From Thermoplasmata archaeon (GTDB lineage Archaea; Thermoplasmatota; Thermoplasmata; Lutacidiplasmatales; UBA184), in assembly GCA_022750435.1 (NCBI GenBank), contig JAKIVS010000001.1:221703-285702 (forward strand): DNA of 64,000 nt, read 5' to 3'. Positions 32,427 to 59,582 of this stretch are shown in pieces (the stretch's first letter is position 1; every line of letters begins with the position of its first letter). The notes under the pieces were generated by a model that ran no database searches, had not been told where the DNA came from, and saw only the letters and a program-made list of their open reading frames with translations. The position numbers were made by a program, and so were the translations under genes.

Positions 32427-32657
32427 ATGCTGCGCAAGAACATCACGATCACCCACGAGGAGAACGCCTTCCTCGAGCGCCACCCCGAGATCAACCAGTC
32501 CGCCCTGTTCCGCCAGATCGTCGAGAGCATGATGATGGCCGAGAAGGCGCCCCACGTGGCGTCAATCCAGAACATCAAGCTCGGCAAGGCCGTCTATCGC
32601 TCGGGCGCGATCATGTACCAGCGGAACGAGCGCCGTCGCCCGTCTCCGACGGAATAG
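32427..32657 (+). CDS. Ribbon-helix-helix (CopG/Arc/MetJ-like) DNA-binding protein
   Basis: MLRKNITITHEENAFLERHPEINQSALFRQIVESMM is the RHH beta-alpha-alpha pattern. TATA-like ACGTATATCTA at 32355..32365. Alternative starts at 32376 and 32388. Confidence 0.5.
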   Translation: MLRKNITITHEENAFLERHPEINQSALFRQIVESMMMAEKAPHVASIQNIKLGKAVYRSGAIMYQRNERRRPSPTE

Positions 32658-33483
32658 GCCGTACCTCCCGTCGGGGGGCGTCGCCCTCCCGGAACCGTTT
32701 TCCCCACTGCGCGGCGATCGACCGTTCGGCATCCGCTGCCCGGGCATACACCACTCCGCTGGCCGACGGACCGGTCGATTCCCAGGCGGCTCGGGCAACG
32801 GCCGGCTCCAGATCGTCGAGCACGTGACGGGCCAGGATATGGCCGAAGGCGAGCGACCGGCGCTTGGTGAGGTCGGTGAAGTGGGGGGCGTAGTGACCGC
32901 CGCCCACGCCCAGCACCACCCGGTCGTGGGGGTCCTCCTCGAGCGAACTCACGACGTCCGCGATCAGCGAGGTGGCCGACTCCCGGGGAGGCAAGGATTC
33001 GCTTCCGCCGACTTCGATGAAGAACGCGGGAACGGCGAGTTCCGGTCCGTGGTGGGTCGCTTCGTAGGTGGTGGGGAGGCCGACCTTCGCCGCTCCCTCC
33101 TCTAAACGTCGGAGGCCATCCGCCATCCAGCGGGGTGCGGCTGGGGTGAGCACCCCCGGGCGGCCCCCGACCTCGGCGGTCGGCCCTGGATTGCCGAGCG
33201 GGTGGACGGTGAGCGCTTCGTCTCCCCGCTCACTCCGGTGGACCGACGGAAAGACGAGCGGGACCATCGCCGCACGCCACGCGTCGGGAAGTTTCGCATC
33301 GAGTCGTTCATCGAAGATGTGCCGTCCCGGACGGCGCAGCGCGACCACCCCGGGGGCGACGTCGCGGACCGGGGCTCCGTCCACCAAGACCCCGGTAGAG
33401 GGGCCCGTCCCCAGGCGCAGCGCAACGGCGCTGGCGACGGGGTCGAGATCCGAGAGGACGATGACGTAGTTCGGGAGGCTCAC
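32611..33483 (-). CDS. dtdA: D-aminoacyl-tRNA deacylase, archaeal type (DtdA)
   Basis: Recalled match to Pyrococcus DtdA: TYEATHHGPELAVPAFFIEVGGSE, GVGGGHYAPH, LAFGHILARHV. GTG start at 33483 chosen from N-terminal alignment (alternative ATG 33591). Confidence 0.8.
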   Translation of the reverse strand: MSLPNYVIVLSDLDPVASAVALRLGTGPSTGVLVDGAPVRDVAPGVVALRRPGRHIFDERLDAKLPDAWRAAMVPLVFPSVHRSERGDEALTVHPLGNPGPTAEVGGRPGVLTPAAPRWMADGLRRLEEGAAKVGLPTTYEATHHGPELAVPAFFIEVGGSESLPPRESATSLIADVVSSLEEDPHDRVVLGVGGGHYAPHFTDLTKRRSLAFGHILARHVLDDLEPAVARAAWESTGPSASGVVYARAADAERSIAAQWGKRFREGDAPRREVRPIPSETGDGARSAGT

Positions 33484-37661: not shown

Positions 37662-38120
37662 GTGACTCCACCGGTCAAGGCCCGTAGTGGCCACCTCATC
37701 CTCGAAGGCCGTCAGACCTACGCCGACCTGACACGCGTCTACCCGGACATCCACCGGAAGGTCGTCGAAGCGAACCGTCCGTTCGCGAAGGAGTCCGAGC
37801 CGTTGCTCCCCGAGGTCCTTCTCGAGGAGAATCTCCGGGACCTTCGCGCCGGCCGCAAGCCCGCCGGCTACAACCGCTCCGAGCCGTTCGCCCTCCGCCT
37901 GATCTTTCCGATCTGCGACCGCAAGCATCCGGAGTTCTACTTCTCGAAGCCCGCGCGCTGCCAGGAGGTCGTTCAGATCACGGAGCAGGTCTCTCAGCTC
38001 CTCAAGCGACGCGGCATGAAGCACACGGTCGAGTACGACCGGCTGCCGCTCGGCGTTCCCCGTGGCCTGCCGCCCGTTCCTCCCGTGGGGAGCGGCACAG
38101 GGTCCATCAGCATCGGTTGA
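37662..38120 (+). CDS. Hypothetical protein
   Basis: GTG-start 152-aa ORF with protein-like composition (K, E, F, Y, I). Preferred over the antisense 37509..38024 ORF, which overlaps the tRNA. Confidence 0.35.
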   Translation: MTPPVKARSGHLILEGRQTYADLTRVYPDIHRKVVEANRPFAKESEPLLPEVLLEENLRDLRAGRKPAGYNRSEPFALRLIFPICDRKHPEFYFSKPARCQEVVQITEQVSQLLKRRGMKHTVEYDRLPLGVPRGLPPVPPVGSGTGSISIG

Positions 38121-38225: not shown

Positions 38226-39128
38226 TCACGTCGGTCCGGCGTCGTGCGGGTGGGACGCGAAGAGGCGGGGGGAGGCGTCCGTGCGGAGCGCTTTGCCGAC
38301 CCGGACGATCACGTAGAGCGCGAACGCGATGGTCACGATGAAGAAACTGACCGGATACGGCTCGTACCAGGAGATGAACAGCCCGAGCCACGTCGCGGAC
38401 AACGCCACAGAGACGGAGACAAGGACCGCCGTGAGCGGGCGTTTGGTGAGGCGGACGGCGATCGCGGCGGGAGTCACCATCAGGGCGAAGATCAGCAGGA
38501 CCCCGATGATCTGGACCGCGATCGAAATCGTCACGGCGAGCATCACCATGAACGCGAGGTTGAGCGCGAGCATCGGGAGGCCTTTCGCCTCGGCGACGTC
38601 CTCGTCCAGGGACGCGAACAGGAGCGGTCGGTAGATCATCGCGAGGACGGCGAGCACGATGAGGCTCGTCCAGAAGGTGAAGCTCACCCCGGAGGCGCTG
38701 ATGCCGAGGACTTCCCCGAACAGGATCGAGTACGCCTCGGTGGCGTACCCCTTGTAGAGGCTGAGGAACAGGAGACCGAGGCCGAGCGCGAAGGCGAGCA
38801 CGGTCCCGATCTCGACGTCGCGGTTGGTCGCCCGATTGCCGAGGAACGCCATCCCGCTCGCCGTGGCGATCGTGAACACGAGGAGGCCGTACACCGGCTG
38901 GACCCCGAGGAGGACCGCCCCCGCCGCTCCGGAGAATCCTGTATGGCCGAGGGCGTGAGTGGCGAATGAGGCGCGCCGGAGAACGACGAAGTAGCCGATG
39001 ATCCCCGCGAGGATTGCGATGATCGTTCCCGCCTCGAATGCGTTGCGCATGAACTCGAACGCGAGCATCGACCGGAGGTCGGTCACGATGTTCCAGTTGA
39101 ACCCCGGGCCGGCCGCCGAGCCGCTCAT
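38226..39128 (-). CDS. ABC-3 family metal (Zn/Mn) transporter permease (ZnuB/MntB-like)
   Basis: Start at ATG 39128 (MSGSAAGPGFNW...), ~8 TM helices. ATGA overlap with the ATPase gene. Confidence 0.75.
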   Translation of the reverse strand: MSGSAAGPGFNWNIVTDLRSMLAFEFMRNAFEAGTIIAILAGIIGYFVVLRRASFATHALGHTGFSGAAGAVLLGVQPVYGLLVFTIATASGMAFLGNRATNRDVEIGTVLAFALGLGLLFLSLYKGYATEAYSILFGEVLGISASGVSFTFWTSLIVLAVLAMIYRPLLFASLDEDVAEAKGLPMLALNLAFMVMLAVTISIAVQIIGVLLIFALMVTPAAIAVRLTKRPLTAVLVSVSVALSATWLGLFISWYEPYPVSFFIVTIAFALYVIVRVGKALRTDASPRLFASHPHDAGPT

Positions 39129-40009
39129 GCGCCCTCCTCCCCGTGGTCGTCTTCGCCGCCGACGATCACGATGTTGTTGCGGGAGTCGCGCAGGACCTCG
39201 ACGTGGACGCCGTAGAGGGCCGAGAGGCTCTCGGACGTGAGGACGTCGCTCGGCCGGCCGGTCGCGACCCGGCCGTTCGCGATGTAGATCACCTTGTCGA
39301 GACACTTGATCATGGGATTGATGTCGTGCGCCACGAGGAGCGTCGTGACTCCCCGTGCCTGGACGAGGCCGTGGATCGTCTCGACGAGCTCCCGGCTCCG
39401 CCGGAGGTCGAGGTTCGAGAGCGGCTCGTCGAGGAGCAGCATCTCCGGGTTGCCGACGAGCGCTTCTGCGAGGAACACCCGCTGGAGCTCGCCCCCGGAG
39501 AGGGAGCCGAGCGACTTCGAGCCGAGGTCCGAGGCGCCGACGTCGGCCAGGACCTGGGCCGCAGCGTCCCGCTCCGCCTCGAGTCGGAGCCTCGGTCCCC
39601 ACACGGTCGGCCGGAATCGGTCGCCCGGACCCCACCGCGTCCCGGGGAAACCGAGCCGCACGAGCTTGTCGCACTCGAGGTGCGTCTCGCGGTCGATCGT
39701 GTGCCGCTGCGGAACGTAGCCGATCCGGGCATTCCCTCGATGCGGGGCCGAGCCGAGGACCGAGAGCGACCCCGCCGACGGCCAGTGCAGGCCGAGCAGC
39801 ATTCGGAAGAGCGTGGTCTTCCCCGCGCCGTTCGGACCGATCACCGCGACGAACTCCCCGTGTTCCACCTCGAACGAGGCGTTCCGCCAGACGAACTTGT
39901 CCCGGTACCGGACCTCCAGGCGCTCGGCCCGGATCGCCGGAGCGCCGGACCGGGCCGTCGGCCCGACCGGCGGGTGGGTGGCGGGAGGGAGCGGTGCGCT
40001 AGCGGCCAC
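39125..40009 (-). CDS. ABC transporter ATP-binding protein (ZnuC/MntA-like)
   Basis: Walker A GPNGAGKTT, signature LSGGELQRV, Walker B LLLDEP. Confidence 0.85.
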   Translation of the reverse strand: MAASAPLPPATHPPVGPTARSGAPAIRAERLEVRYRDKFVWRNASFEVEHGEFVAVIGPNGAGKTTLFRMLLGLHWPSAGSLSVLGSAPHRGNARIGYVPQRHTIDRETHLECDKLVRLGFPGTRWGPGDRFRPTVWGPRLRLEAERDAAAQVLADVGASDLGSKSLGSLSGGELQRVFLAEALVGNPEMLLLDEPLSNLDLRRSRELVETIHGLVQARGVTTLLVAHDINPMIKCLDKVIYIANGRVATGRPSDVLTSESLSALYGVHVEVLRDSRNNIVIVGGEDDHGEEGA

Positions 40010-40015
40010 GCGAGG

Positions 40016-41221
40016 TCACTGCCCCAGCTGGTAGGCGTTCAACGCGTTCTCCAACTGGTTGTATTGCCCGTACATCCAGTCCTGGAAGCTCGTGTCCGGA
40101 GGCTGGATCGTTTCGCTCACGAAGGTGACCGAAACGTTGTGCTGCGCCGCGATCGCCTTCAAGGACGTCGTGATGGGCGTCACGGTCTGGATGTTGTAGA
40201 CCAGGACCTTCACGTTCCCGCTCTCGAGCTGGCACTGGAACTGCGTGACGCTCTGGGTCGGCGGGTCGTTCCCCTCGGCGATCGCCTCCATGAACGGCTG
40301 GGGCGAGATCAGGTCGAGCCCCGTGTAGTTCGCGAGGTAGACGAAGATGCTCTCGGTCGAATCGACGACCGTGCCCTGGAACTCGTCCCGGATCTGGTTC
40401 GCCCGCGCGTACAACTGGTCGATCGACACGCCCTGGGCGCCGCCCCCCGTCGAGGTGTTCAGGTTCGCGAAATTCTGCTGGAAGACCTTCGTCGCCGACG
40501 GCTCGAGCGCGACGAGGTCGCCGTACATCGCGAGCAGGGTGTGGTTGACGTACAGCGGGTTGTACCACTGGTGGGGGTTCCCCGTGACGATTCCCCCCGT
40601 CACCGAGACGCCGTTGAGGATGCCGACGTTGAGGACCTCCTGGTGGGGGGTCTTCGAGGCGTTGATCAGCTGGAGCGCCCAGTCGTCGTAGCCGACGCCG
40701 TTGACGACGATGAAATTCGCGTCGGCGATCGCGGCGGCGTCGGAGGTGTTCGCTTCGTACTCGTGCGGGTCGGCGTTCGGGTCGTTGACGATGCTGAGGA
40801 CCGACGTCAGATTCCCCCCGAGCTGGCCGACGAGGCTGCCCCAGAAGTTCTCGCCGGCAACGACCTGGATCACCTGGCCGAACGGCAAGGTCGGAAGAGA
40901 GCCCTGCACGCTGGTGGCGTTGGCGAAGTGCGGGGTCGTGTCGCCGGAGACGACGCCGGCCTTCGGATTCGCCCCGAGCTCGTCGGGTGTGAACGCCGCA
41001 CACGGGTTCCCCGGCGCCTGGCTCGTCACGATCTCGTACGCTACGGCGCTCCCCGCCACGATGAGCACGACCACAACGGCGAGGATCGTCGACTTCGGTA
41101 CGCCCGTACGAAGGGGCTTGGCGGGACAGGACCCGTACGGCCCGGACGAGGCCGGCGCGGAAGAGCCCCCGGAGTTCGCGGGGTCCGGACCCCCAACCGG
41201 AGAGGCATTCGAGCCGGCCAC
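40016..41221 (-). CDS. Metal ABC transporter substrate-binding protein (cluster A-I, ZnuA/TroA-like)
   Basis: N-terminal TM/anchor, DPHEYE and NPHQWYNP motifs, N-glycosylation sequons. GTG start at 41221, just after the repressor stop (the track ORF extends into the repressor gene). Confidence 0.7.
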   Translation of the reverse strand: MAGSNASPVGGPDPANSGGSSAPASSGPYGSCPAKPLRTGVPKSTILAVVVVLIVAGSAVAYEIVTSQAPGNPCAAFTPDELGANPKAGVVSGDTTPHFANATSVQGSLPTLPFGQVIQVVAGENFWGSLVGQLGGNLTSVLSIVNDPNADPHEYEANTSDAAAIADANFIVVNGVGYDDWALQLINASKTPHQEVLNVGILNGVSVTGGIVTGNPHQWYNPLYVNHTLLAMYGDLVALEPSATKVFQQNFANLNTSTGGGAQGVSIDQLYARANQIRDEFQGTVVDSTESIFVYLANYTGLDLISPQPFMEAIAEGNDPPTQSVTQFQCQLESGNVKVLVYNIQTVTPITTSLKAIAAQHNVSVTFVSETIQPPDTSFQDWMYGQYNQLENALNAYQLGQ

Positions 41222-41223
41222 GG

Positions 41224-41661
41224 TCAGAGTGCTCCCTCGAACGGTCGGCCCGAGCACGGGGTGATCGGTTCCCCGTGGGGGCAGACCGAGGGATGGCCCT
41301 CGGCCGCACACACGCGCTCCACCGTCTTGTGGGAGATCGACAGGTCGACCTCTCGGGCGGCGGCGCACGTCGCCTCGGGAGAGAGCCCGAGCTTCCCGAA
41401 GAGTGTCTCGGCGACGCGGTGGTGCCGCTGGTACTCGAGCAGAGTTCCTCGGCCTTTGGGGGTGAGACGGCTCTTGCCCCGGTATCGTTCGACGAGCCCG
41501 AGCTCCTCGAGTGGGGTGAGGTGGCCGAGCGCGGAAGGGGCCGAGACATGCAGGGACGTCGCGATCCAGTTCAGCGGAACCCCGCGCTCGGGGGTCTCCC
41601 GCACGCCGACGGCCTGCAAGGCGTCCAATTGGCGTCGGGTCAGTTTCTGGAGAGTCTCCAT
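41224..41661 (-). CDS. DtxR/MntR-family metal-dependent transcriptional repressor
   Basis: Winged-HTH N-terminus plus metal-binding dimerisation domain. 145 aa. Directly upstream of znuABC. Confidence 0.75.
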   Translation of the reverse strand: METLQKLTRRQLDALQAVGVRETPERGVPLNWIATSLHVSAPSALGHLTPLEELGLVERYRGKSRLTPKGRGTLLEYQRHHRVAETLFGKLGLSPEATCAAAREVDLSISHKTVERVCAAEGHPSVCPHGEPITPCSGRPFEGAL

Positions 41662-41890: not shown

Positions 41891-44800
41891 CTAGAACGGC
41901 TGGCGCCGGAACGGCCAGAACGCCGCGGGCGTCTCCGGGGGCTTCGTCTGGCCCTGGAGGAGCTTGAGGGACTCGCGCGCCTTGTCGAGCGCCTTCTGGT
42001 AGTCCTCGACGCGGGCGCGGATCGACTCCTCGAGAAGCTTTCGGGCATCGGCGGTGTCGAGGTGGCGCTCCGCCGCCTTTGCGAGAGCCGAATCGATCAG
42101 GTAGTGGATGTTCAGGAGCTCCCGGTGGAGCGCCTTGCGGGTGTTCAGCTCCGACTCGACCGCCAGGAGGGTTCGTGCGCCTTCCACAAGGTCGCCCGAC
42201 TGGACGAGGCCTTCCACCGAGGCGAGTCGCTCCGGGAGCGTGCCGAGCGTGACGTTGAGGCCCTCCCGCGCGAAGACGAGTTCGCTCTCCACGCTGCGGC
42301 GGCGTTCGCCGAGGCGTGCCTCGACGAGTCCGGCCAGGCGCTCGTTCCCCTGCTGGACGTTCGCCTCGACGCTCGCGTACTTCCCCGCGTCGAGGGCGCT
42401 CTTCGCCTCGCTGAACAGCTCCATCACGGGGGTCGTGTCAAGACCGAGCTTCTCGCCGACCCAGAGGCGGTCTTTCAGAAGATGGACCGCGGCCTCGAGG
42501 ACCGCCACGCGGCTCAGTCGCGCCCGGGCCTCCTCCTCACTCATGCGTTGAACGGCGAGCGGGTAGTCGCGTCGCCCCCGCGCCTCCTGGATGCCGAGAG
42601 CCGCTTGGGCCCGGGCCTCGGTTTCCGGTGCGTCGGCGGCGGCCGCCGCGCCGTAGATGGCTTCCAGGTCCGTTCGCCGGGCGTCCAGCAGCCGGTCGAG
42701 CGATTCGTACGCGGCGGTCCGCGCCCGTTCGAGGGCGTCGGACGCGCGCTTCCATTCCCTCGCCGGGATCGCGCCCTCCGCCTCGGCGACCGCTTCCTCG
42801 ACGGCCTGGATGCGGCCGGTGCCGGCCGCGGTCATCGTCTCGGCGAGCGATCGGATCGAGGCAAACGAACCCGCGTAGAGCCGCTCGACCGCCCAGCGGG
42901 CGAGGTCGTTCGCCTCGCGCGCGGCCTGCGTCGCGTTCGGATATTCCCCGGCCTGGGCGTGGTGTCGGGCCTTCTCGAGCGCTCGGACGACTTCGTCGAC
43001 GTCGGCGCCCAGCTCGAGGGCTTCCTTCACCTGCCGGTCGGCCGAGTCGAGGGCATCGCGGGCCCGGCGCTGCTGCTCGCGGGTGGTCGCGAGCTGGTCG
43101 GCGGCCTCGAGCGCGAGCTCGAAGACGGCCGGGAACTGCTGACGGCGGATCGCCTGGCGCGCCTTCTCGATCTGTGCGGTCGCCGAGGCGGCGTGGACGC
43201 CGTCTTTCTCCGCCTCGACGAGCTTCGCCTCCATCGTCTCGAGCGCCGCGCGGGCGAGCGTCGTCTGGAGTTCCACGCGCTCGATCTCCCCCTCGCTCTG
43301 GGCGGCGAGGGTCAACGCTTCGATGGCGCGGCCTTCCTCGAGCGCCTGGCGAGCGCGCGACAGGAGGTTCTCGGCGACGGTCGTCGGCGACCCCTCCTGG
43401 CGGACATGGACCAGCATCCCCTGGAGGTTCGCGAGCGTCTTCGCCACGTGGGTGTGCGTCGACTGGATCAGCTCCCGCTCGAGCGGGCCCCCAAGCTCGA
43501 TCGCCTTCGCGTAGCGCTTCTGCGCCAGGTGATCCTCGAGTTCCGCGAGGCGGCCCTTCAACGGACCGATCGCGGCCCGCACGATCTCGGCCTCGGCGAA
43601 CGCCTCCCGGGCGCGCTTGACGGCCCGCTCGGCCTGTTCGAGGAATCCCCGTGTTTCCACCAGCTGGGAGCGGACGGACTCGACGCGCTCGGCGACCCCG
43701 GTCGGCACCGGCGTGGCGAGCCCGCGTCGCGCCTCGGCGAGCTGCTCGACGACGGTCCCCGTGTCGACGCCGGCGGACCGGGCCACATCGAGCTCCTGCT
43801 CGAGGGCGCGGACCGTCTCCTCGAGGACGGGGCGCAGAAGTTGGAGGAGCGCGTCCTGCGCGGTGGTCGCCAGTTGGAGGGCTTCGGTCGGTCGTCCCTC
43901 GGAGAGGGCGGCCGACGCCGCGGCGAGGTTCGGCCGGTACGGGTCGGTGGAGAGGCCAAGGCGGTGACTGTCCTCGAGGAGGAGCTCGACCGTGGTGATC
44001 CGGCGTCGGGCGTCGGTGCCGGCCCGCTCCGCCGTGAGCGCCTCCTCGATGGCCCGGAGCTTCGCCTTCGCACCGGCAAAGTCGAGGGCCTGGTACGCGA
44101 GGCGCGTTTCCCGGATGCGCTCCCGGTAGGCGTCGACGGCGACGCCGTCGTCCTTGAGGCCCTGCCAGAGCTCGCCCGCCCGCTGCAATCCCTCGACGAG
44201 CGCCTCCGCCGATTGGCGCATGCCGAGCGCCTCTTCCTCGACCGCCTTCGCGCCCTGGTACGCCTCGGCGAACCGGTGGTCGCGGGCGGCTTCCTGGGCG
44301 GCGTCGAACCGCTCGCGGAGGGCCGCGGTGTCGAGGCCCATCTTCCCGAGCTCCACGAGAGCGAGCTTCGCGTGGGAGACCGCCTCCTCGCTCTGGATGA
44401 GCTGTTGCTGCTGGGCGCGCGTCCGGATCTCCTGCGAGGCCCGGGACGCCTTGACGAAATCGCCCATGTTGAAGATCTGCTGGACCTCGTCGATCTGACG
44501 CTGGATCTCGTCGCCGGCCCCGCCCATCGCCTCGAGGGCGCGACCTTCCTCCTCCAGCGCCTCCACCAGGGAGGAGGCGTGGGCGGCGAACACCGCGGCG
44601 AACTCCCGCTCCGCTCGCTTGAGGCTCTCCAAGGACGCCACCAGGTCCTCCTTGACCCGGAGCGAGACGTCGGCATCGGCGAGCAGACGTCGCGCCGGGG
44701 CCACGAGGGCGTCGTCGTGGATCTCCTCGAATCCCTTCTCGAGTTCCCCCACGACGCGGGCGACGTACGGACCGGCCGACGCCCGCAGGCCGACCTCGAC

Positions 44801-46357
44801 GGCCGCGAGCGCCTCGCCGGCCTCGGCGAGAGACCCGTCGGCGAGGGTCTGCTGTCCGTTCGCGAGGGCGGCCGCCGTTTCCGGCGTGAGGAAGCCGCGC
44901 TCGCGCGCCAGCTCGACGAGCTTCTCGAGACGTTCGGCGTAGGTTTGGAAATGTTCGAGCGCGGCGCGTCCGAGGGTCCGGATCGCCTCCCGGATCGTCG
45001 TCCGGGCGGCGTCGACCTCGAACTTCTCGAGCCGCTGCTGCGCCTCCCGGAGCGGTTCGTAGTACGACTGGACCGGCACGTCGAGCGCGCTCAACCGGTC
45101 GAGGAGCGAGCGGAGCGAGTCGACCTCCTCCCGGGCGGCGTCGAGGTCCTGGGTGAGCGCCGTGGCGCGCTCCATCGCCTCCTGGCTGGCGGCGAGCGCC
45201 TCCCCGTAGATCTTCAGCCGGAGCGCCTCGCGGGCCCGGTTCATCGCCGCGAACACGTCGGAGGCGTCGCGACCGAGCCAGCGGGCCTCGACCAGCTTCG
45301 GTCGAACCTCGTCAAGCAGCCCGGCGACGATCCCCACGACGGGCTCCTCGGTGATCGCCCGCCCCTTCGCGAGGAGCTGGGGGAGTTCCACGGGACTAGC
45401 GCCCGGCACCTGGTCGACCAAGACGTCGATCTGCGCGACGCCCTCCGTCACGTCGGTGCCGGACCCGCGCAGCGATTCGAGGGTCCCTTTCAGCGTGGCG
45501 AGCGCCCCTTGCACCCGACCGCGGAGTTCCTCGCCGACGTCGGCGCTCGCCCGCTCGATCGCCGGGACCGTCTCGTCCCACTCGAGCGGGGTCGCGCTCT
45601 GATCGACGGCGAGGGCCGTGTCGAGCGTGGCGTGCTGCGAGCCGAGGTCCCGGGCGGCGGCGAGAATCGATTGTCCGGAAGCGCGCACGAGCTCGCGCCG
45701 CTCCACGGCGGCGGGGACCTGGCCCCGGATCTCCGCGTCGAGCTGCGCGAGCGCCTCCGCCACCTTTCCGTCCGACATCGGGGCGATCGCGTGGCGGAAC
45801 CTCGCATCGAGCTCGGCCATCCGCTCCTCGGGGATGCCGGCCCATTTGGCCACCGAACGCGCGCGCTCGCGCAGGGTGAGGGAGAAATCCGTCTGCGATT
45901 GGCGGACGATCCGGAAGAGCGTCGCGATTCGCTCGACGGCCAGGGCGAGCTCGCCTTCGATCGCCGTGGCGCGCAGCTCCTCGATGACCTTGGCGGCGTC
46001 CGCGGGGAGCGGCGCCTTCGCCTTCTGGAGCGCCTCGGCGCGGCCGAGCACCGACGTCCGGCGCTCCTCGAGCGCTGGCGCCACGGAGCGCTGGATGTAG
46101 GATACGAACTCTTTCGCGGTCTGCTCGACCGCCTCCCAATCGGACTTCCGGGTGAGCTCGCGGAGCTTCGCGACCCGCTCGGCGGTCTCGGAGAGGGTGA
46201 CGCCGATCTCCTCGAGAAGTTTCAGTCGGTCTTCGACCTCGGCCGACGCCTGGTCGGCGAGCTGGCGCCGCTTCTTGAGCGACTCCGCCTTCTCCTGGAG
46301 GATCTTGGTCAGGCGGGACGATGGGACGCTCCCCATCCCCCCACCCGAACCGGACAT
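41891..46357 (-). CDS. Giant (1488 aa) acidic alpha-helical repeat / coiled-coil protein of unknown function
   Basis: Ala/Glu/Leu/Arg-rich with a recurring ~35-40-aa module [LV]xxxG[LAV]DTxxxxxxLxxAxxAxxxGxYxxA. Full-length antisense ORF 42062..46363 is a shadow. Confidence 0.65.
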   Translation of the reverse strand: MSGSGGGMGSVPSSRLTKILQEKAESLKKRRQLADQASAEVEDRLKLLEEIGVTLSETAERVAKLRELTRKSDWEAVEQTAKEFVSYIQRSVAPALEERRTSVLGRAEALQKAKAPLPADAAKVIEELRATAIEGELALAVERIATLFRIVRQSQTDFSLTLRERARSVAKWAGIPEERMAELDARFRHAIAPMSDGKVAEALAQLDAEIRGQVPAAVERRELVRASGQSILAAARDLGSQHATLDTALAVDQSATPLEWDETVPAIERASADVGEELRGRVQGALATLKGTLESLRGSGTDVTEGVAQIDVLVDQVPGASPVELPQLLAKGRAITEEPVVGIVAGLLDEVRPKLVEARWLGRDASDVFAAMNRAREALRLKIYGEALAASQEAMERATALTQDLDAAREEVDSLRSLLDRLSALDVPVQSYYEPLREAQQRLEKFEVDAARTTIREAIRTLGRAALEHFQTYAERLEKLVELARERGFLTPETAAALANGQQTLADGSLAEAGEALAAVEVGLRASAGPYVARVVGELEKGFEEIHDDALVAPARRLLADADVSLRVKEDLVASLESLKRAEREFAAVFAAHASSLVEALEEEGRALEAMGGAGDEIQRQIDEVQQIFNMGDFVKASRASQEIRTRAQQQQLIQSEEAVSHAKLALVELGKMGLDTAALRERFDAAQEAARDHRFAEAYQGAKAVEEEALGMRQSAEALVEGLQRAGELWQGLKDDGVAVDAYRERIRETRLAYQALDFAGAKAKLRAIEEALTAERAGTDARRRITTVELLLEDSHRLGLSTDPYRPNLAAASAALSEGRPTEALQLATTAQDALLQLLRPVLEETVRALEQELDVARSAGVDTGTVVEQLAEARRGLATPVPTGVAERVESVRSQLVETRGFLEQAERAVKRAREAFAEAEIVRAAIGPLKGRLAELEDHLAQKRYAKAIELGGPLERELIQSTHTHVAKTLANLQGMLVHVRQEGSPTTVAENLLSRARQALEEGRAIEALTLAAQSEGEIERVELQTTLARAALETMEAKLVEAEKDGVHAASATAQIEKARQAIRRQQFPAVFELALEAADQLATTREQQRRARDALDSADRQVKEALELGADVDEVVRALEKARHHAQAGEYPNATQAAREANDLARWAVERLYAGSFASIRSLAETMTAAGTGRIQAVEEAVAEAEGAIPAREWKRASDALERARTAAYESLDRLLDARRTDLEAIYGAAAAADAPETEARAQAALGIQEARGRRDYPLAVQRMSEEEARARLSRVAVLEAAVHLLKDRLWVGEKLGLDTTPVMELFSEAKSALDAGKYASVEANVQQGNERLAGLVEARLGERRRSVESELVFAREGLNVTLGTLPERLASVEGLVQSGDLVEGARTLLAVESELNTRKALHRELLNIHYLIDSALAKAAERHLDTADARKLLEESIRARVEDYQKALDKARESLKLLQGQTKPPETPAAFWPFRRQPF

Positions 46358-46481: not shown

Positions 46482-46868
46482 TCACGCCTTCGTGATGCGC
46501 CGCATCCCCATGGCATCGAGATACTGGATCTCGGTCCCCGGGGTCAGCTGGCCCTTCAATTCGGTCTCGATGGGGAGGCTGAACGTCTGGTAATCCTCGA
46601 GGTCCATCAACTGGACCTCGGTCTCGGTGAGGGACAGCACCTGGGCCTTCCGCTTCCCGATCATCGGGACGCGGACCTTGTGGGTTACCGGGAAGACGAC
46701 GCTCCGTTTGGAGCCGTCGAACAGCCCGATCGCATCGATGCGTGCCTTCGCTTCCCCGTGCTTCCCGGGCTTGGACATCTGGATCGAGAGGATCCGGCAC
46801 GGCTCCTCTTCGACGAGCATGTAGCGGCCCTCCTTGAGCTCGCGGACCTCTTGCTGCGTCCACGCCAT
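46482..46868 (-). CDS. Translation initiation factor 5A (aIF-5A)
   Basis: Hypusination loop SKPGKHGEAK. 128 aa from ATG 46868 (MAWTQQEV). Confidence 0.9.
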   Translation of the reverse strand: MAWTQQEVRELKEGRYMLVEEEPCRILSIQMSKPGKHGEAKARIDAIGLFDGSKRSVVFPVTHKVRVPMIGKRKAQVLSLTETEVQLMDLEDYQTFSLPIETELKGQLTPGTEIQYLDAMGMRRITKA

Positions 46869-47019
46869 CGCGCGTCCCCTCCGAAGCTCTCGCAAGAAGT
46901 CCGGGGGATAACCGTTGCCCCCGGGCCGGCCGTCGACCGGGGCCGTCCGGCGAGCGAGGGTTTATCGGCGCCGGTCCCCCATCGCAATCCCGCGGGCCGC
47001 GGCGCGGTCCGACGCGTTC

Positions 47020-50000
47020 ATGGAGCGGCTTGCGCCACGGTACGACCCGACCGAGGTGGAGGCGGCCAGCCGCGCGTTCTGGGCGGAACGTTCCCGGCGG
47101 CGCGACGCCGAGGGCGCGGCGGGCCGGGGCGGCCGACCGGTCCGGCAGTTCCTCGGCACCCTCGCCCCCTCCGATTCTCCGGCCACGACGCTCCAGCGGA
47201 CCGTCGCCGCCGATGCCGAAGCGCGCTACCTGCGACTCGCCGGCCGACGGACGGATTGGTCGCTGAGGCTCCGGGTCCCATGGTCCGGCGAGGGACGGGA
47301 CGCCACGGTCGCGCGGCTCTTCCAGGCCGGCGTGAGCGGGCCTTCCACCGACCCGGACGGACTCGCCGAGCGGCGACGGTGGATGCTCGGACGCCTCGCG
47401 GACTCCCGCGTCTTGGTAGCGCGGGAACTCCCGCTCCGGATCTGCCCGAGCTGTCGGACCCCCCGCACCCCGGAAACGATCGTCTACGACGCGCAGCCCG
47501 GGCACGCCTACCTCGTCCGCTTTGCCATCCCGGACGAGGCCGAACGCACGTCGCTCCTCGTCTGGACGGACGAGGTCTGGAAGCTCCTCGGCACCGTGGC
47601 GCTCTTGGTCAACCCCGAAACCCCGTACGTCGTCGCGCGATTCACGCGCCGCGACACCGCGGAACGGGTGATCCTCTCCCGGTCGGCGCTCGACCGCGTG
47701 CAGCGCTGGCTCCCGGGGAGCTCCCTCGAGGTCCTCGAGGAGAAGCTCGGGGCGGACCTCGCGGGGACGACGTACTCCCACCCGCTCACGCTCGAGTACC
47801 CTCCCCTCTCCGACCTCGTCTCGCCCGCGGGCTCCGTCGTCGCCTCGAACGACGTGAGCGACAGCGGCACCGGGATCGTGACGCTCACCCCCTCGCACGG
47901 CGCCGGCGATGCGGCGGTCGCCCGGGCCCACCGGATCGAGGGTCCGTCGGTGGTTGGGACCGACGGCCTCGTGGAGTCCTCCCGGCCGCACAAGTACGCG
48001 GGGCTCGAGTTGGAGAGCGCGGAGGCGTTCATCCTCCGCGACCTGACCGAGGGAGGTTCGATGTTCGCCGAGCTGACCGTGCGGCGCGGCGTACCGTACT
48101 GTGCGGTGTGTGGCTCGGTCCTTCGCTGGGTTCCCGGGCGCGCCTGGTGCCTCGAACCGGGCCGGCTGAGCGCGGAGTCCCTCGGCCAGTTCGCGCGCCT
48201 CCTTCCCGACGACACCGTCCCCCTCACCTCCGAGGTCGTCCCGTGGTCGGTCTCCGAGACGACCCCGAGCGTCGACCCGTCCGACCCGATCCTCTCCGAG
48301 TGCTCCCAATGCGAGCGGCTTTCGACGGCCGCCACCGGGGAGCGGTGCGCCTGTGGCGGAGCGTTCGTCGGCGTGCGACGGCGCCTTCTGCCCGCGTTCT
48401 CCGAGGCCGTCGATGGGTGGGCCTCGGCCCGCGCCCTCGATCCCTCGGACCCGGTACGGCTCTACCTCCCGTACCGTCGGAGGGCCGCGGCGTTGCTCCA
48501 CCACCTCGCCGCCGGCGAGGCGCTCGACGCGCCGCCCGCTGACGTGCGATTGATCGCCCTCCCGACCTTGCCGCCCGGGACCTTCGGCGACGGTCCCGGT
48601 CAGGACGCCCAGAGGGCCGCGCTCCTCCGAACGAGCCGCCCCCCGCGCACGCTGGCCGTCGTCCAGGAACGCGCGGTGCAGGAAGCGCGGCGGCTGAGCA
48701 AGTTCTGGATGTTGGCCGCCCAGGTGCTCGACCGTTCGATCGCCGACGGATTTGAACCGGACCGGGCGCTCGCCGGTCACCTGTCGGAGCTGGCGGAGGA
48801 GGACCGGGCGTTCCTCTCCACCTTCGAGCGGATGCGGACCGACGTCCGTCGACGCTACGAGGCCGGCGACCTCGCCGCCGCCCAGGCGATGCTCGCCCGA
48901 TTCGCGGAGGTCGAACTCCGCGGGGGGTACCTCCCGATGGTCGCGAGCCGCCTCGCCGCGCCCGGGCTTCCGCCGGGGAAGGTCGCCGCCCTCCGGGTCC
49001 TCCACCACGTTCTCCCCGCCTGGGTCGAGCTGTACGCTCCCATCGCGCCGTTCACGATGGAGGCGCTCCACCGGGCGTTCCAGCCCGATGGAGGCTCCGT
49101 CTTCGACGGCGGGATCCTGCCGGCCGTCGACCGGGCCGTGTCGGTCGAAGCGGAGGGGGAGTACGACCGGTGGCGGACCTTCGGCGAAGCCCTGCGGGTC
49201 GGACGCCGGAGATTCGGAATCCCGGCCGCGACCGAGCTGCCCCGCGCGATCCTCCTCGTGAACGATGAGGCGACGGCGACCCGATTGCGTTCGACCGCCG
49301 CGGTCCTGGGGCGGCTCGCCCACGTGACGGAGGTCATCGTCGGCTCCCCGTCCCAACCGTGGGATGGTCAGAGGATCGAGGTCCATCCCGTCCTCGCGGC
49401 CATCCAGAAGACCTACGGGGCCCAATCGGCCCGGGTCGTCCGGATCCTGGAACAGATTCCGTCCCGTCGCGTGCAGGACGGCGTGCGGGCCGGCACGCTC
49501 TCGATCGCCCTCGACGGACGCCAGATGCCAATCCTGCCTGGCATGGTCGAGTTCTCCGAATCGCTGCCGGACGACGTGGTCCCGGTACCCTGGGGGCACG
49601 GCGAGATCCTGATCTCGCTCCCCCCGGACACGGCCCGCCACAAGCGGAAGGCGCCGGCCCTGACGCTGGACGGCTACCGGATCGTTCGCCACATCGAACG
49701 CCGCTTGCACATCGCCGGGGGGGTGACACCCGAGCTCGTCGTCGTGTCGGCCAACGGTCCGCTCGGCGAAGAGATGGCGAAGCACGCCGTCGCCGTCGCC
49801 GCCTACATCGGGATTGGGCAGCTCGCCGTCAACGACGGGACCCTCTCCCCCCCGATGACGGAGACGAGTCTCGGGCGCACGCGTCGCGGAGGTCGGTGGC
49901 GGGTCTACATCCCCGGCGTTCCGGTTCGGCCCCCCACGGCCCGGCCGAGCCGACCGGCCCTCGGACGCCACCGGGTTCCCGTGTTCGCTGAGAGCCGGCC

Positions 50001-51036
50001 CACGTTGGAAACCGTTCCCTTCCTCGAGGGGTCGGTCCGGAACCGCGAGGAGACGGTGCGCTCGATCGTCGAGCAGGTCGACCGAGTCGTCGGACGACCC
50101 GTGGTCGGACCGACCAAGGTCGGAAACGCGTTCGACGCCGGGTTCACCTCGTTCGACTTGCTGTCCAAAGCTCCGTACGACCAGCTCTCGGGCGTGGCGG
50201 GGTTCGGCCCGTTCGTCGCCGGTCTCCTCGTCGAGTCGTTCGGAGGCGAGGTACCGGCGCCACCGCCTCGCCACCGGCCCCACCTCGTGCGTCCGGGCGA
50301 ACACGAACCAGCACCTCCCGAAACGCTGGAGGCGCCGGCCATGGTCGAGCCCCAGCCGGCGCCCCCGGTCCCGGCCGCCGCCCCACCGCCCCTCGCGCCG
50401 CTCGCGGCCCCGATCCTTGCCCCGCCGCCGGCGGCAACCTTACCCACCATGCAAGTCGTTCCCGTGGCGCCGGTCCCGACCCCCGCCGTGCCGGTGCCGC
50501 CACCCCTCGCCCCACCCCCGGTCGTAGCTCCTCCGCCGGCTCCGGAGCCCCCAACTCCGGAACCCCCCGCCGCACCGCCTTCCGGAGTACGACTGAGCCT
50601 CGGGGACCGGGAGGAGCCGGCGTGGAGGAGCTTCCTCGACGCGACGAGCGCCGGACACCGGGGGCTGTGCCTCAGCCGGGAGTTCCCAGAACGTCGGCGC
50701 GCCCTCCTCGGTCCCCGGGACGTCGAGGTCGTCTGGCTCTCGAACGTCGGCAAGGGCTCTGCGGTCCGACCGGGCGACCTGCCGGCGCTGACGACCCTCC
50801 TGACCTCCGCGATGACCGACCGGGGCGTGACCGCCATCTTCGTCGAGGGGGGAGAGTACCTCGTTCGGATCCACGGCGTCGGCCCGCTCGCCGATCTGCT
50901 CCGGCAGCTCGACGCGCTCGCCCGCGAACGCTCCGCCCGGGTCTGGTGGCCGATCAACCCCGCGCTGATGCCCGGCGCGGACGTCGACGTCCTTCGGACG
51001 ACGGTGACCGTCGAGGGCCCCGAATCCCCGACGTGA
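47020..51036 (+). CDS. Catalytically degenerate isoleucyl/valyl-tRNA synthetase paralog fused via a Pro-rich linker to a C-terminal DUF835 domain
   Basis: Class I aaRS N-terminus (PRYDPTEVEAASRAFW). CP1 boundaries ICPSCRTPRTPETIVYDA and PYCAVCGSVLRWVPGRAWCLEPG. Editing-domain motifs LLVWTDEVWKLLG and GTGIVTLTPSHGAGD. IleRS-like DAQRAALLR, KFWML and LPAWVELYAPIAPFTMEAL. HIGH and KMSKS are absent. ~110-aa P/A/V-rich linker. C-terminal GLCLSREFP...VVWLS...AIFVEGGEYLV matches DUF835. Confidence 0.7.
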   Translation: MERLAPRYDPTEVEAASRAFWAERSRRRDAEGAAGRGGRPVRQFLGTLAPSDSPATTLQRTVAADAEARYLRLAGRRTDWSLRLRVPWSGEGRDATVARLFQAGVSGPSTDPDGLAERRRWMLGRLADSRVLVARELPLRICPSCRTPRTPETIVYDAQPGHAYLVRFAIPDEAERTSLLVWTDEVWKLLGTVALLVNPETPYVVARFTRRDTAERVILSRSALDRVQRWLPGSSLEVLEEKLGADLAGTTYSHPLTLEYPPLSDLVSPAGSVVASNDVSDSGTGIVTLTPSHGAGDAAVARAHRIEGPSVVGTDGLVESSRPHKYAGLELESAEAFILRDLTEGGSMFAELTVRRGVPYCAVCGSVLRWVPGRAWCLEPGRLSAESLGQFARLLPDDTVPLTSEVVPWSVSETTPSVDPSDPILSECSQCERLSTAATGERCACGGAFVGVRRRLLPAFSEAVDGWASARALDPSDPVRLYLPYRRRAAALLHHLAAGEALDAPPADVRLIALPTLPPGTFGDGPGQDAQRAALLRTSRPPRTLAVVQERAVQEARRLSKFWMLAAQVLDRSIADGFEPDRALAGHLSELAEEDRAFLSTFERMRTDVRRRYEAGDLAAAQAMLARFAEVELRGGYLPMVASRLAAPGLPPGKVAALRVLHHVLPAWVELYAPIAPFTMEALHRAFQPDGGSVFDGGILPAVDRAVSVEAEGEYDRWRTFGEALRVGRRRFGIPAATELPRAILLVNDEATATRLRSTAAVLGRLAHVTEVIVGSPSQPWDGQRIEVHPVLAAIQKTYGAQSARVVRILEQIPSRRVQDGVRAGTLSIALDGRQMPILPGMVEFSESLPDDVVPVPWGHGEILISLPPDTARHKRKAPALTLDGYRIVRHIERRLHIAGGVTPELVVVSANGPLGEEMAKHAVAVAAYIGIGQLAVNDGTLSPPMTETSLGRTRRGGRWRVYIPGVPVRPPTARPSRPALGRHRVPVFAESRPTLETVPFLEGSVRNREETVRSIVEQVDRVVGRPVVGPTKVGNAFDAGFTSFDLLSKAPYDQLSGVAGFGPFVAGLLVESFGGEVPAPPPRHRPHLVRPGEHEPAPPETLEAPAMVEPQPAPPVPAAAPPPLAPLAAPILAPPPAATLPTMQVVPVAPVPTPAVPVPPPLAPPPVVAPPPAPEPPTPEPPAAPPSGVRLSLGDREEPAWRSFLDATSAGHRGLCLSREFPERRRALLGPRDVEVVWLSNVGKGSAVRPGDLPALTTLLTSAMTDRGVTAIFVEGGEYLVRIHGVGPLADLLRQLDALARERSARVWWPINPALMPGADVDVLRTTVTVEGPESPT

Positions 51037-55537: not shown

Positions 55538-55667
55538 CCGCGGAGACCGTGGCACGCCGGCCGGGTTCCGTACCAAGACCAAGGCGGTTGCGGTCGGAGG
55601 AATGGGTTCGGAGGCTTGGGTGACCCCGGGACGTCGCTCGCGGGGACCCGCGGAGCGGACCACCCGC

Positions 55668-56057
55668 TCAGGGCTTGGGGTACTGGTAGAGCCCGACGAC
55701 ATTCCCCTCGCTGTCTTTGAAATAGCCCATCCAGCCCATGCTGGCGTCTCCGATCGGCTGCTTGCGGACCAGGATCGTCCCGCCGTGCTTCTCGATCGAC
55801 TTCTCGGCGACCGTGATCTCATCGACCATGATCGTCACGACCGGATGCTCGAGTGGAGCTGCCCTCTTCGTAATTCCGCCCCCGATATACCCGGGCTCCT
55901 TCGGCATGCCCTCCTCGGTCACGGCCCCGGTCGAGACCATCGCGTACTCCATCCCGGGGGGTTCGACGTACTTCCAACCAAACGTCGATCCGTAGAACTT
56001 CTTCGCGCGCGTCACGTCGTCCGCCGGGATCTCAAAGTGTCCGACCTCTCCGCTCAT
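55668..56057 (-). CDS. VOC-family (glyoxalase/bleomycin-resistance fold) protein
   Basis: 129 aa, MSGEVGHFEIPADDVTRAKKFYGSTFGW...GNVVGLYQ. Only the C-terminal part of the 913-aa track ORF is real. Confidence 0.7.
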   Translation of the reverse strand: MSGEVGHFEIPADDVTRAKKFYGSTFGWKYVEPPGMEYAMVSTGAVTEEGMPKEPGYIGGGITKRAAPLEHPVVTIMVDEITVAEKSIEKHGGTILVRKQPIGDASMGWMGYFKDSEGNVVGLYQYPKP

Positions 56058-56316
56058 TTTGGCCCCCCTTCTCCCGAGCGTTCCCACGCTAAAAAACCGA
56101 ACCGGAGGTCGTGGAACGGTTCCGAATCCTCCGCCTCGGGAACGCCCCACCCCTCCTCCCGCCGCGCGGTTCGGAAGACGAACGGTACGCGACGGCACCG
56201 CCGGGAATCGCCGCCACGAACGGGGAGGGCGCGAAGGGCCGATGTCCTGGACGGGAGCGAGGGGGCCCCGTTCCGTCCGACGGGGGCCCGTCGGGGCGAG
56301 ACACATCGGGAGGCGG

Positions 56317-56357
56317 CTAAATACCGGGACTCGGGTCCCGCCGCCCCGGGTAAACAA
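56317..56357 (+). promoter_or_regulatory. Promoter of gly-rich paralog 1: TATA-like TAAATA plus conserved ATACCGGGACTCGG and CCGGG-N17-CCCGG palindrome
   Basis: Near-identical element repeated at 59540..59582 upstream of paralog 2. Both genes begin ATGTCG. Confidence 0.55.
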
Positions 56358-59264: not shown

Positions 59265-59539
59265 GGTTCCCTTTCGTCCCTCTCGAGGGAACTGCCTCTC
59301 CACGGGCCGGGGATCGACGGCCGGGACCTCTTCCACGATTCCCCGGGGCCCCGGCCCGCTCGAACGCTCAGGAAGGAGGCGGGGCCCCGAGTCGCGGCCT
59401 TCGAGAACAGGAGGGCTCCCGGCCTTCCGGGGCCGCGGAACCAGCCTGTCCCGCCGGGACCCGGAATGTCACGACGCGCCACGTCCACGGCTAGGGCCGT
59501 GGCCCCGGTGGCCGAAAGTTGCGACAATCCTAATTCCGA

Positions 59540-59582
59540 CTATATACCGGGACTCGGTTCCCCGCCTTCCCGGGGATCAAGT
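59540..59582 (+). promoter_or_regulatory. Promoter of gly-rich paralog 2: TATATA plus ATACCGGGACTCGG plus palindrome
   Basis: See paralog 1. ~26 bp from motif end to ATG. Confidence 0.55.

Follow-up and report, generated by a model that had tools for sequence, protein, structure and literature searches.

The stretch of DNA analysed here, referred to as the window, comprises 64,000 nucleotides of contig JAKIVS010000001.1 from a soil archaeon of the order Lutacidiplasmatales. With a G+C content of ∼71%, it carries a gene for a protein of 1338 amino acids in which a body resembling isoleucyl-tRNA synthetase (IleRS) is joined, via a helix-hairpin-helix (HhH)-like segment and a proline-rich linker, to a C-terminal DUF835 domain (Table 1). 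We refer to this protein as pseudo-IleRS. The mechanically called open reading frame (ORF) spans 46915-51036 (+) and opens at a TTG codon. The N-terminus found family-wide (MERLAPRYDP / MERLAPRYDPTEVEAASRAFW) begins at the ATG at 47020, and this ATG is assigned as the start because a TATA-like, AT-rich box (∼46956-46966) falls inside the TTG-extended frame. Among the domain matches anticipated by the initial annotation, hidden Markov model searches of Pfam returned DUF835 (PF05763) at residues 1205-1325 (E 1.2e-11; 45 bits, gathering cut-off 33.1) and Anticodon_1 at residues 595-740 (E 4.7e-9; 36.7 bits, cut-off 25.1), whereas tRNA-synt_1 (PF00133) gave no match at E ≤ 1. The NCBIfam model for ileS (TIGR00392) scored 109 bits, under its cut-off of 621.4, with the match lying mainly in residues 119-366. 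A phmmer search of PDB sequences retrieved IleRS structures (E 7e-18) through the stretches 122-387 (CP1 domain) and 526-688 (anticodon-binding helices, aligned to the IleRS 8c9d). At NCBI, related proteins are named "class I tRNA ligase family protein" or "DUF835 domain-containing protein".

Alignments of 88 family members with three true IleRS, later extended by 25 archaeal IleRS, reveal the sequence changes in the synthetic site. The HIGH position holds unrelated residues (‘...GTLAPSDSPATTLQR...’ / LAPSDSPATTLQR in the window protein), and His-x-Gly-His/Thr occurs there in 0 of the 88 members; the ∼26 residues that follow, bearing the GxDxHGLP motif, are deleted across the family. Where true IleRS read GRKMSKSLGN, the KMSKS loop is replaced by a gap of about 12-19 aligned columns. 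In addition, DVWFDSG has changed to aWAr.dP, and DQxRGWF to RRR.PalvHH (RRRxPALVHH-type). Judged from the alignments, every sequence signature of amino-acid activation is absent, family-wide. The initial annotation, which had proposed loss of both class I signatures and a catalytically dead paralog, is borne out on the first point and, with the motifs gone, on "dead"; "paralog" presumes a canonical IleRS elsewhere in the genome and is unproven.

The CP1 domain, too, is remodelled. In IleRS, the CP1 editing pocket normally takes the aminoacylated 3' end of the tRNA, with an Asp holding the α-amino group of the aminoacyl moiety, and post-transfer editing needs the Thr-rich peptide, its Asn and the His of GTGxVH. 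In the pseudo-IleRS family, the Thr-rich peptide WTTTPWTLPxN reads W[TV]D[AE][PV]W[RK]LLGT, the Asn being replaced by Thr, and GTGxVH reads GTGIV[T/P], the His being replaced by Thr or Pro with the GTG itself retained. The HGxxD motif is kept as the invariant H293, G294 and D297, so that just GTG and D297 remain of the residue set for post-transfer editing. An additional Asp184 in the pocket has been gained and is nearly invariant. Seven zinc-knuckle cysteines (C145/361/364 and C428/431/443/445) are invariant, an eighth (C142) is present in at least 90% of sequences, and the invariant columns overall cluster within residues 145-470.

Structure prediction with AlphaFold2 for residues 1-1090, based on an 86-sequence alignment, gave a body model with a predicted local distance difference test score (pLDDT) of 90.1 and a predicted template-modelling score (pTM) of 0.79; in the N-terminal half of the Rossmann fold, strands at residues 40-48 and 77-84 flank a helix at 54-73. 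Foldseek matched the model best to Priestia megaterium IleRS2 (8c9d/8c8v; E 1e-49) over ∼1090 aligned columns at 18% identity and a template-modelling score of 0.59-0.62, 8c8v being the IleRS2 entry with a resolved C-terminal tRNA-binding domain. Yeast IleRS-tRNA complexes came next, and ValRS and LeuRS were weaker. The body is thus confidently predicted to have a complete type-2 IleRS architecture, composed of Rossmann core, CP1, two zinc knuckles, anticodon helices and C-terminal tRNA-binding domains. Together with the Anticodon_1 match above cut-off, the model agrees with the retained synthetase architecture suggested earlier.

C-terminal to the body, residues 1004-1073 are modelled as five short helices that include a GFG hairpin motif. 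The window protein itself has no Pfam match to HHH_5 (PF14520), a model matched by some family members, as well as by active relatives, at the equivalent position. The linker that follows consists of 39% Pro, 17% Ala and 10% Val, in line with the Pro/Ala/Val-rich linker of the initial annotation, and pLDDT drops below 50 where it begins; across the family it measures 97-579 residues (median 343) and is Pro-rich in every case. AlphaFold2 confidence was 90-94 across the modelled parts. As regards the DUF835 domain, whose C-terminal placement had been recognised correctly and which nearly all family members carry as a precomputed PF05763 annotation, a PDB search by sequence with the DUF835 profile yielded no significant match, and a fold-level search was needed. 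It returned PH0284, a RecA-superfamily KaiC-like protein (14.0), archaellum FlaH/ArlH (13.2) and KaiC (12.5). The Walker A P-loop is absent, and an invariant Glu occupies the Walker-B-like strand. Galperin 2018 (PMC5847659) counts DUF835, under the label iKaiC for an inactivated KaiC-like domain, among the output domains of archaeal response regulators. In the light of that listing and of the fold search, the domain, initially presented as a hallmark of sensor/signalling proteins, is more aptly called an inactivated KaiC/RecA-like domain.

When GTDB was scanned with one genome for each species, relatives of pseudo-IleRS turned up in 136 species genomes, all of them Thermoplasmata metagenome-assembled genomes (MAGs) and including Candidatus Lutacidiplasma silvani, a Lutacidiplasmatales MAG, UBA184 and UBA61. 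A G+C content of ∼70% is likewise in keeping with Lutacidiplasmatales. A word-indexed protein search showed the same unbroken fusion in ∼99 protein clusters, again all from Thermoplasmata MAGs. The fusion is therefore real, and the possibility of a frameshift artefact, entertained at the outset, falls away. The window gene was compared with its closest related locus for the ratio of nonsynonymous to synonymous substitution rates (dN/dS), which, to be read as rough values since dS of ∼1 is near saturation, was 0.15 for the whole gene, lowest for CP1 with the zinc knuckles (0.07), 0.09 for DUF835, 0.28 for the linker and 0.37 for the HhH segment. By this measure, pseudo-IleRS is under purifying selection. 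In one long-read MAG (L014:10001-11770), the frame stops after 590 codons, the probable cause being an indel error or a true disruption in one lineage.

The wider occurrence of the fusion becomes apparent from an exhaustive HMMER search with residues 1-1090 against 1.84 billion representatives. Beyond the family itself, a second tier of matches at 24-30% identity, many of them 1300-2300 residues long, combines tRNA-synt_1 at 300-445 bits with Anticodon_1, DUF5915, HHH_5 and a C-terminal DUF835; active relatives carry PF19302 in the region matching residues 741-1000. Some tailed relatives have H[IV]GT, [PRK]MSKS and WTTTPWT intact (P0284, P0292, P0300, P0302, P0309, P0310), and others have lost the motifs to varying degrees (P0288, P0298, P0304, P0306-P0308, P0311, P0314, P0316, P0318, P0319, P0331). 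Their source names include "isoleucine--tRNA ligase" of Candidatus Sysuiplasma acidicola (P0310) and of Methanomassiliicoccales archaeon (P0429, P0442, P0450). Going by sequence, the dead form is not alone in having the IleRS-HhH-DUF835 fusion, which is common in Thermoplasmatota with intact motifs and tRNA-synt_1 at 400+ bits. The survey of relatives thus bears out the dead fusion, in 136 species, and at the same time removes the novelty claimed for the fusion as such, given that the tail also occurs on IleRS with intact motifs. What is unusual in the window family is the dead version conserved across an order and its gene neighbourhood.

The tailed IleRS P0284, P0310, P0429, P0442 and P0450 share the domain order of pseudo-IleRS and are its closest sequence relatives outside the family. 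The tailed IleRS with intact motifs have short linkers, in contrast to the long Pro-rich tether of pseudo-IleRS, and P0284, the sole intact-motif locus checked, is adjoined by neither aIF5A nor the giant protein that border the pseudo-IleRS gene (see below). A neighbour-joining tree recovers the window family as monophyletic in all 100 bootstraps and, in 78 of them, nests it inside the DUF835-tailed IleRS clade; its branch is very long, which leaves room for long-branch attraction in so simple a tree. Degenerate tailed copies in which HIGH and/or KMSKS are lost were also observed in low-GC Thermoplasmatota (loci L095-L098), some of them annotated "isoleucine--tRNA ligase". One such protein, P0318, is encoded directly after an Rpb7-Spt4-DUF359-S24e-S27ae cluster, and the gene of P0284, with its motifs intact, lies close to a comparable cluster that lacks S24e, which hints at degeneration in place. 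P0322 (ENA contig of 4.4 kb), a high-GC, IleRS-like protein of 1052 residues without DUF835, HIGH and KMSKS and with a near-intact Thr-rich peptide, is a separate pseudo-IleRS lineage. Literature searches on the HhH-DUF835 tail of IleRS returned no paper, and those on DUF835, on KaiC with IleRS and on inactive IleRS paralogues returned no description of an IleRS-DUF835 fusion or of a dead IleRS paralogue. The duplicates given in a 2022 review of IleRS are IleRS2 and SbzA only.

If pseudo-IleRS is inactive, the charging of tRNA(Ile) must be provided for in another way. We know of no alternative route to Ile-tRNA(Ile), so a canonical IleRS would be required in the genome. A tblastn search with true IleRS of the window and of four related loci (L001-L004, ±10 kb) matched the pseudo-IleRS gene alone. 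The flanks of the high-GC IleRS P0326, P0400 and P0440, compared by tblastx with 1.7 Mb of Lutacidiplasmatales loci, shared no neighbours with them. In the supplements of Sheridan 2022, neither K01870 nor IleRS has an entry, and a metagenome scan with an IleRS profile revealed, among the matches listed, no contig common to pseudo-IleRS.

The gene neighbourhood of pseudo-IleRS is conserved. The gene is arranged divergently with that of aIF5A, as had been noted from the start, at a distance of 151 nt in the window, and of 84 related loci searched by tblastn, 78 encode aIF5A immediately upstream on the other strand. Five of the six loci without it have zero upstream sequence, and one (L016) has 1.4 kb of upstream sequence and still lacks it. 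L011 and L015 have an insertion of 1.7-2.3 kb. The spacer measures 130-160 nt in 49 of 54 loci. Amid GC-rich DNA it contains two AT-rich boxes, GGATAACCGTTGC at ∼46906-46918, facing aIF5A and ∼40 nt from its ATG, and GAGGGTTTATC ∼55 nt ahead of the pseudo-IleRS ATG. Their consensus is GGATAA(C/G)nGTTGC and GAGGGTTTAT(C/T), and both are kept across loci whose encoded proteins are just 37-79% identical to those of the window. The boxes are probably back-to-back TATA/BRE (B recognition element) promoter elements for aIF5A and pseudo-IleRS.

Downstream of aIF5A, wherever contig sequence extends far enough, lies the gene of a giant protein rich in Ala, Leu, Glu and Arg, which has no match in Pfam, NCBIfam or the PDB. 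It has 220 homologues, the 120 listed being 1275-1533 residues long and, where the source is named, all from Thermoplasmata MAGs. BLASTP of the protein on itself saw no repeats, whereas profile self-comparison with hhalign gave offsets of 62, 121, 189, 374, 560 and 686 and therefore about 24 repeats of ∼62 residues. In relatives, its 3' end is convergent with the gene of a 152-aa protein, likewise without match in Pfam, NCBIfam or the PDB, that is far more conserved than its neighbours. In the window, an apparent insertion relative to most relatives, a cassette for Zn/Mn uptake, separates the two. The 152-aa protein, the giant helical protein of 24 repeats, aIF5A and, divergent from them, pseudo-IleRS form a fixed block, beyond which the flanks vary among loci. 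Four distant relatives (35-46% identity) still show the divergent 128-aa aIF5A followed by a protein of ∼1450-1500 residues without Pfam domains, with different outer genes. The initial annotation had omitted this block, as well as the HhH segment and the type-2 C-terminal tRNA-binding domains. The aIF5A linkage was tried as a general trait of tailed IleRS and rejected in view of three other tailed lineages without it, so the linkage is specific to the Lutacidiplasmatales family. As a separate observation, a DTD2 homologue occurs within 10 kb of pseudo-IleRS in 28 related loci, forming a loose cluster of genes for tRNA and translation quality control.

Table 1. Features of the pseudo-IleRS gene and of its surroundings in the window (aa, amino acids)
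Feature	Coordinates	Strand	Evidence
pseudo-IleRS gene: IleRS-like body, HhH, Pro-rich linker, DUF835 (iKaiC)	47020..51036	+	1338 aa + stop
residues 1-120, N-terminal half of Rossmann fold; HIGH replaced, ~26-aa GxDxHGLP segment deleted	47020..47379	+	alignments, AlphaFold2, no PF00133
residues 121-470, CP1 "editing" domain with two Cys4 zinc knuckles; most conserved part	47380..48429	+	alignments, dN/dS 0.07
residues 471-545, C-terminal half of Rossmann fold; DQxRGWF replaced, KMSKS loop deleted	48430..48654	+	alignments
residues 546-740, helical anticodon-binding domain (Anticodon_1)	48655..49239	+	Pfam, phmmer
residues 741-1000, type-2 IleRS-like tRNA-binding C-terminal domains (DUF5915-like)	49240..50019	+	Foldseek; PF19302 in active relatives
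residues 1001-1080, helix-hairpin-helix-like segment LSGVAGFGPFVAGLL	50020..50259	+	AlphaFold2 helices; HHH_5 in relatives
residues 1081-1195, Pro/Ala/Val-rich linker, presumably disordered	50260..50604	+	composition, low pLDDT
residues 1196-1338, DUF835, inactivated KaiC/RecA-like domain	50605..51033	+	Pfam, fold search
divergent control region, two conserved AT-rich boxes amid GC-rich DNA	46869..47019	.	length and box conservation
aIF5A, 128 aa, hypusine-site motif SKPGKHGEAK, divergent neighbour	46482..46868	-	PF21485 E 1.7e-14
giant Ala/Leu/Glu/Arg-rich protein, 1488 aa, ~24 repeats of ~62 residues, downstream of aIF5A	41891..46357	-	profile self-comparison
Zn/Mn ATP-binding cassette (ABC) uptake cassette: ABC-3 permease, ABC ATPase, ZnuA-like binding protein and DtxR-like repressor	38226..41661		
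152-aa protein, no recognised family	37662..38120	+	67-94% identity in 59 loci
DTD2-type D-aminoacyl-tRNA deacylase, PF04414-like	32617..33483	-	NCBIfam PRK03995 E 1e-43

Of the known non-catalytic relatives of aminoacyl-tRNA synthetases, some are regulators (GCN2, HisZ) and others are duplicates of puzzling purpose (LeuRS-I), and we infer that pseudo-IleRS belongs among the non-catalytic, regulatory derivatives. To our knowledge, no other full-length class I editing-type synthetase has lost catalysis yet is selected across a whole archaeal order. Relevant precedents are LeuRS-I and LeuRS2. According to the summary of Weitzel 2020 and Fang 2014 in PMC9437257, LeuRS-I (Sulfolobaceae) and LeuRS2 (Halobacteria) are archaeal class Ia duplicates that bind tRNA, aminoacylate barely or not at all, and are retained and matter for growth. 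LeuRS-I, whose CP1 is disrupted, can still form leucyl-adenylate, whereas in pseudo-IleRS the adenylation site is destroyed and CP1 is best conserved; unlike pseudo-IleRS, both lack an iKaiC fusion. The signalling proteins of REC-DUF835 and TM-DUF835 type share with pseudo-IleRS the Pfam family, the P-loop-less RecA/KaiC fold and the C-terminal position of a presumed output or interaction module (PMC5847659). The input module differs, a receiver, PAS or membrane domain in the archaeal DUF835 proteins as compared to a synthetase-derived body of ∼1080 residues here.

Based on the collective evidence of fold, conservation and gene order, we tentatively favour, at a little short of an even chance, a non-catalytic IleRS descendant retained for a role in translation control that involves tRNA binding and coupling through iKaiC. 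The ancestral housekeeping IleRS would already have borne the HhH-iKaiC tail, as in present Methanomassiliicoccales. In the Lutacidiplasmatales ancestor, charging may have passed to another IleRS, the tailed copy being kept for a second, non-catalytic job. tRNA(Ile) would be docked through the anticodon-binding and C-terminal domains, its 3' end placed in the remodelled CP1 pocket, the occupancy of which could vary with charging state. Docking of tRNA(Ile) with a read-out of the 3' end and its charging is the most economical proposal because the CP1 pocket is most constrained and keeps the Asp that binds the α-amino group. Via the flexible tether, the iKaiC domain could tie the read-out to an oligomeric assembly, either associating with itself or entering KaiC-like ATPase rings, and pseudo-IleRS would serve, alongside aIF5A and the giant repeat protein, as a sensor or scaffold linked to translation. 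Several points weigh against this proposal. Lys is almost absent from pseudo-IleRS (0.9%), and the CP1 and anticodon-binding regions are net acidic, a basic character being limited to what is left of the Rossmann fold and to the C-terminal domains, so that docking of tRNA in the canonical manner cannot be taken for granted. The 36.7 bits for Anticodon_1 lie far under the 111-136 bits of real IleRS. No canonical IleRS turned up in the same genome, in searches of limited reach that do not count as evidence of absence. A gene order conserved within one order could in part reflect inherited synteny, and the aIF5A linkage is absent from the three other tailed lineages examined. The rough dN/dS values and the long branch noted above count here as well, and a signalling function based on binding of tRNA or isoleucine is itself our reading of fold, conservation and gene order.

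The shortage of Lys, the acidity of CP1 and the anticodon-binding domain and the weak anticodon-domain score would be understandable if pseudo-IleRS were a pure structural scaffold or localisation factor, a rigid IleRS body without tRNA binding whose iKaiC domain and tether assemble or anchor a larger complex, such as one associated with synthetases or ribosomes and including the giant repeat protein. The long tether of variable length, the constant presence of the giant repeat protein as neighbour and the oligomerisation typical of KaiC-like folds all fit such a role. Given that the strongest constraint resides in the CP1 ligand pocket and zinc knuckles rather than in generic surface, and that all domains touching tRNA in real IleRS are retained in a confidently predicted fold, we regard it as unlikely. 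The same CP1 constraint invites the idea of a stand-alone trans-editing factor, in which CP1 still hydrolyses mischarged tRNA(Ile) or another aminoacyl-tRNA despite a dead synthetic site. CP1 is the best conserved part and the closest to real IleRS, GTG and the universally conserved Asp survive in it, and DTD2 is found near pseudo-IleRS in the 28 related loci and also in the window. Replacement, family-wide, of the Thr-rich peptide, the Asn (by Thr) and the His of GTGxVH (by Thr or Pro) renders this function improbable, and the iKaiC tail and the aIF5A link would be left unexplained. Use of the charged tRNA as donor by the CP1 pocket in an aminoacyl-tRNA-dependent transferase, with aIF5A as possible acceptor, would by comparison account for a synthetase paralogue placed invariably head-to-head with a gene of the EF-P/IF5A family, and for a pocket that keeps the α-amino-binding Asp, loses the residues supporting hydrolysis and gains Asp184. 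PoxA/GenX is linked genetically and functionally to EF-P (elongation factor P), the bacterial homologue of aIF5A, and SbzA is an IleRS homologue that uses Ile-tRNA(Ile) as donor. PoxA, SbzA and pseudo-IleRS are alike as synthetase paralogues with non-canonical jobs. PoxA and SbzA differ from pseudo-IleRS in their working adenylate/synthetic site: SbzA works through its synthetic site, with weak aminoacylation left, and that site is destroyed in pseudo-IleRS, while PoxA keeps the ATP site and is without the anticodon-binding domain, the opposite of the pattern here. Considering also that the window aIF5A has a standard hypusine-site sequence and that no precedent was found for transfer chemistry in a CP1 domain, a transferase is a long shot.

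Conceivably, pseudo-IleRS could be the organism's sole IleRS, charging tRNA(Ile) with motifs diverged beyond recognition, inasmuch as a canonical IleRS was found neither in the window and L001-L004 (±10 kb) nor in a Lutacidiplasmatales genome. Against this stand the five independent active-site signatures that have been exchanged or physically deleted, a very long branch and the lack of a PF00133 match, for which relatives at 24-30% identity score 300-445 bits, and the unsuccessful searches, limited in reach, do not count as evidence of absence; taken together, these observations leave very little probability for this view. A decaying pseudogene or an assembly or fusion artefact, for which the interrupted copy of L014 might speak, is given almost no credence. 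The frame is intact with the same domain order in the ∼99 clusters and 136 species genomes from independent projects, the whole-gene dN/dS is 0.15, AlphaFold2 confidence is 90-94 and the promoter-like boxes are conserved; we have rejected this explanation on the intact frames and the dN/dS.

A more far-reaching interpretation takes the conserved block as a whole. The HisRS-like domain of eukaryotic GCN2 senses uncharged tRNA and acts at stalled ribosomes with the giant helical-repeat partner GCN1, and eIF5A occupies such ribosomes. GCN2 and pseudo-IleRS are alike in that a catalytically dead, synthetase-derived domain is covalently joined to an effector domain. They differ in that GCN2 derives from class II HisRS and has a protein kinase as effector, whereas pseudo-IleRS derives from class I IleRS and carries an inactivated KaiC-like domain and no kinase; GCN1 and the giant repeat protein are not homologous, and all parallels to GCN2/GCN1 are by analogy. 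Pseudo-IleRS is accordingly no member of the GCN2-type sensors, an analogue at most. Understood in this way, the block might be an archaeal analogue (not homologue) of the GCN2/GCN1 sensor of stalled ribosomes and amino-acid starvation, a suggestion we consider doubtful. Dead IleRS would read tRNA(Ile) charging at or near the ribosome through the remodelled CP1 pocket, the giant helical-repeat protein would serve as ribosome-bound platform, and the tethered iKaiC domain would signal to KaiC-like ATPase hubs. In a bolder variant, the CP1 pocket might use aminoacyl-tRNA to modify aIF5A, as PoxA does EF-P. KaiC-type networks are said to have been proposed as archaeal signalling hubs by Makarova in 2017.

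The finding also brings to light the occurrence of an inactivated KaiC-like domain on the working IleRS of many Thermoplasmatota, including the cultivable Methanomassiliicoccales lineage, which is apparently undescribed. The dead Lutacidiplasmatales copy suggests that tail and tRNA-binding body are worth keeping without aminoacylation, and a link is therefore implied between the status of tRNA(Ile) or translation and KaiC-type networks. The pairing with aIF5A and the giant protein of 24 repeats offers a concrete module of three to four genes.

Elsewhere in the window, two tandem paralogous ORFs at 55602-59264 (+) and 59466-62507 (+) share an N-terminal hydrophobic segment, the motif TPGTV..PC.F.TF..DVLAGGTV and long Gly-rich GGxGG repeats. 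They have no Pfam match, local G+C reaches 78%, and they may encode surface proteins, the assignment of the coding strand not being firm. About 24 kb upstream of pseudo-IleRS, at 22372-23433 (-), a tRNA-splicing endonuclease (PF01974 and PF02778, each matched twice) is ordinary in itself and adds to the tRNA-related content of the window.

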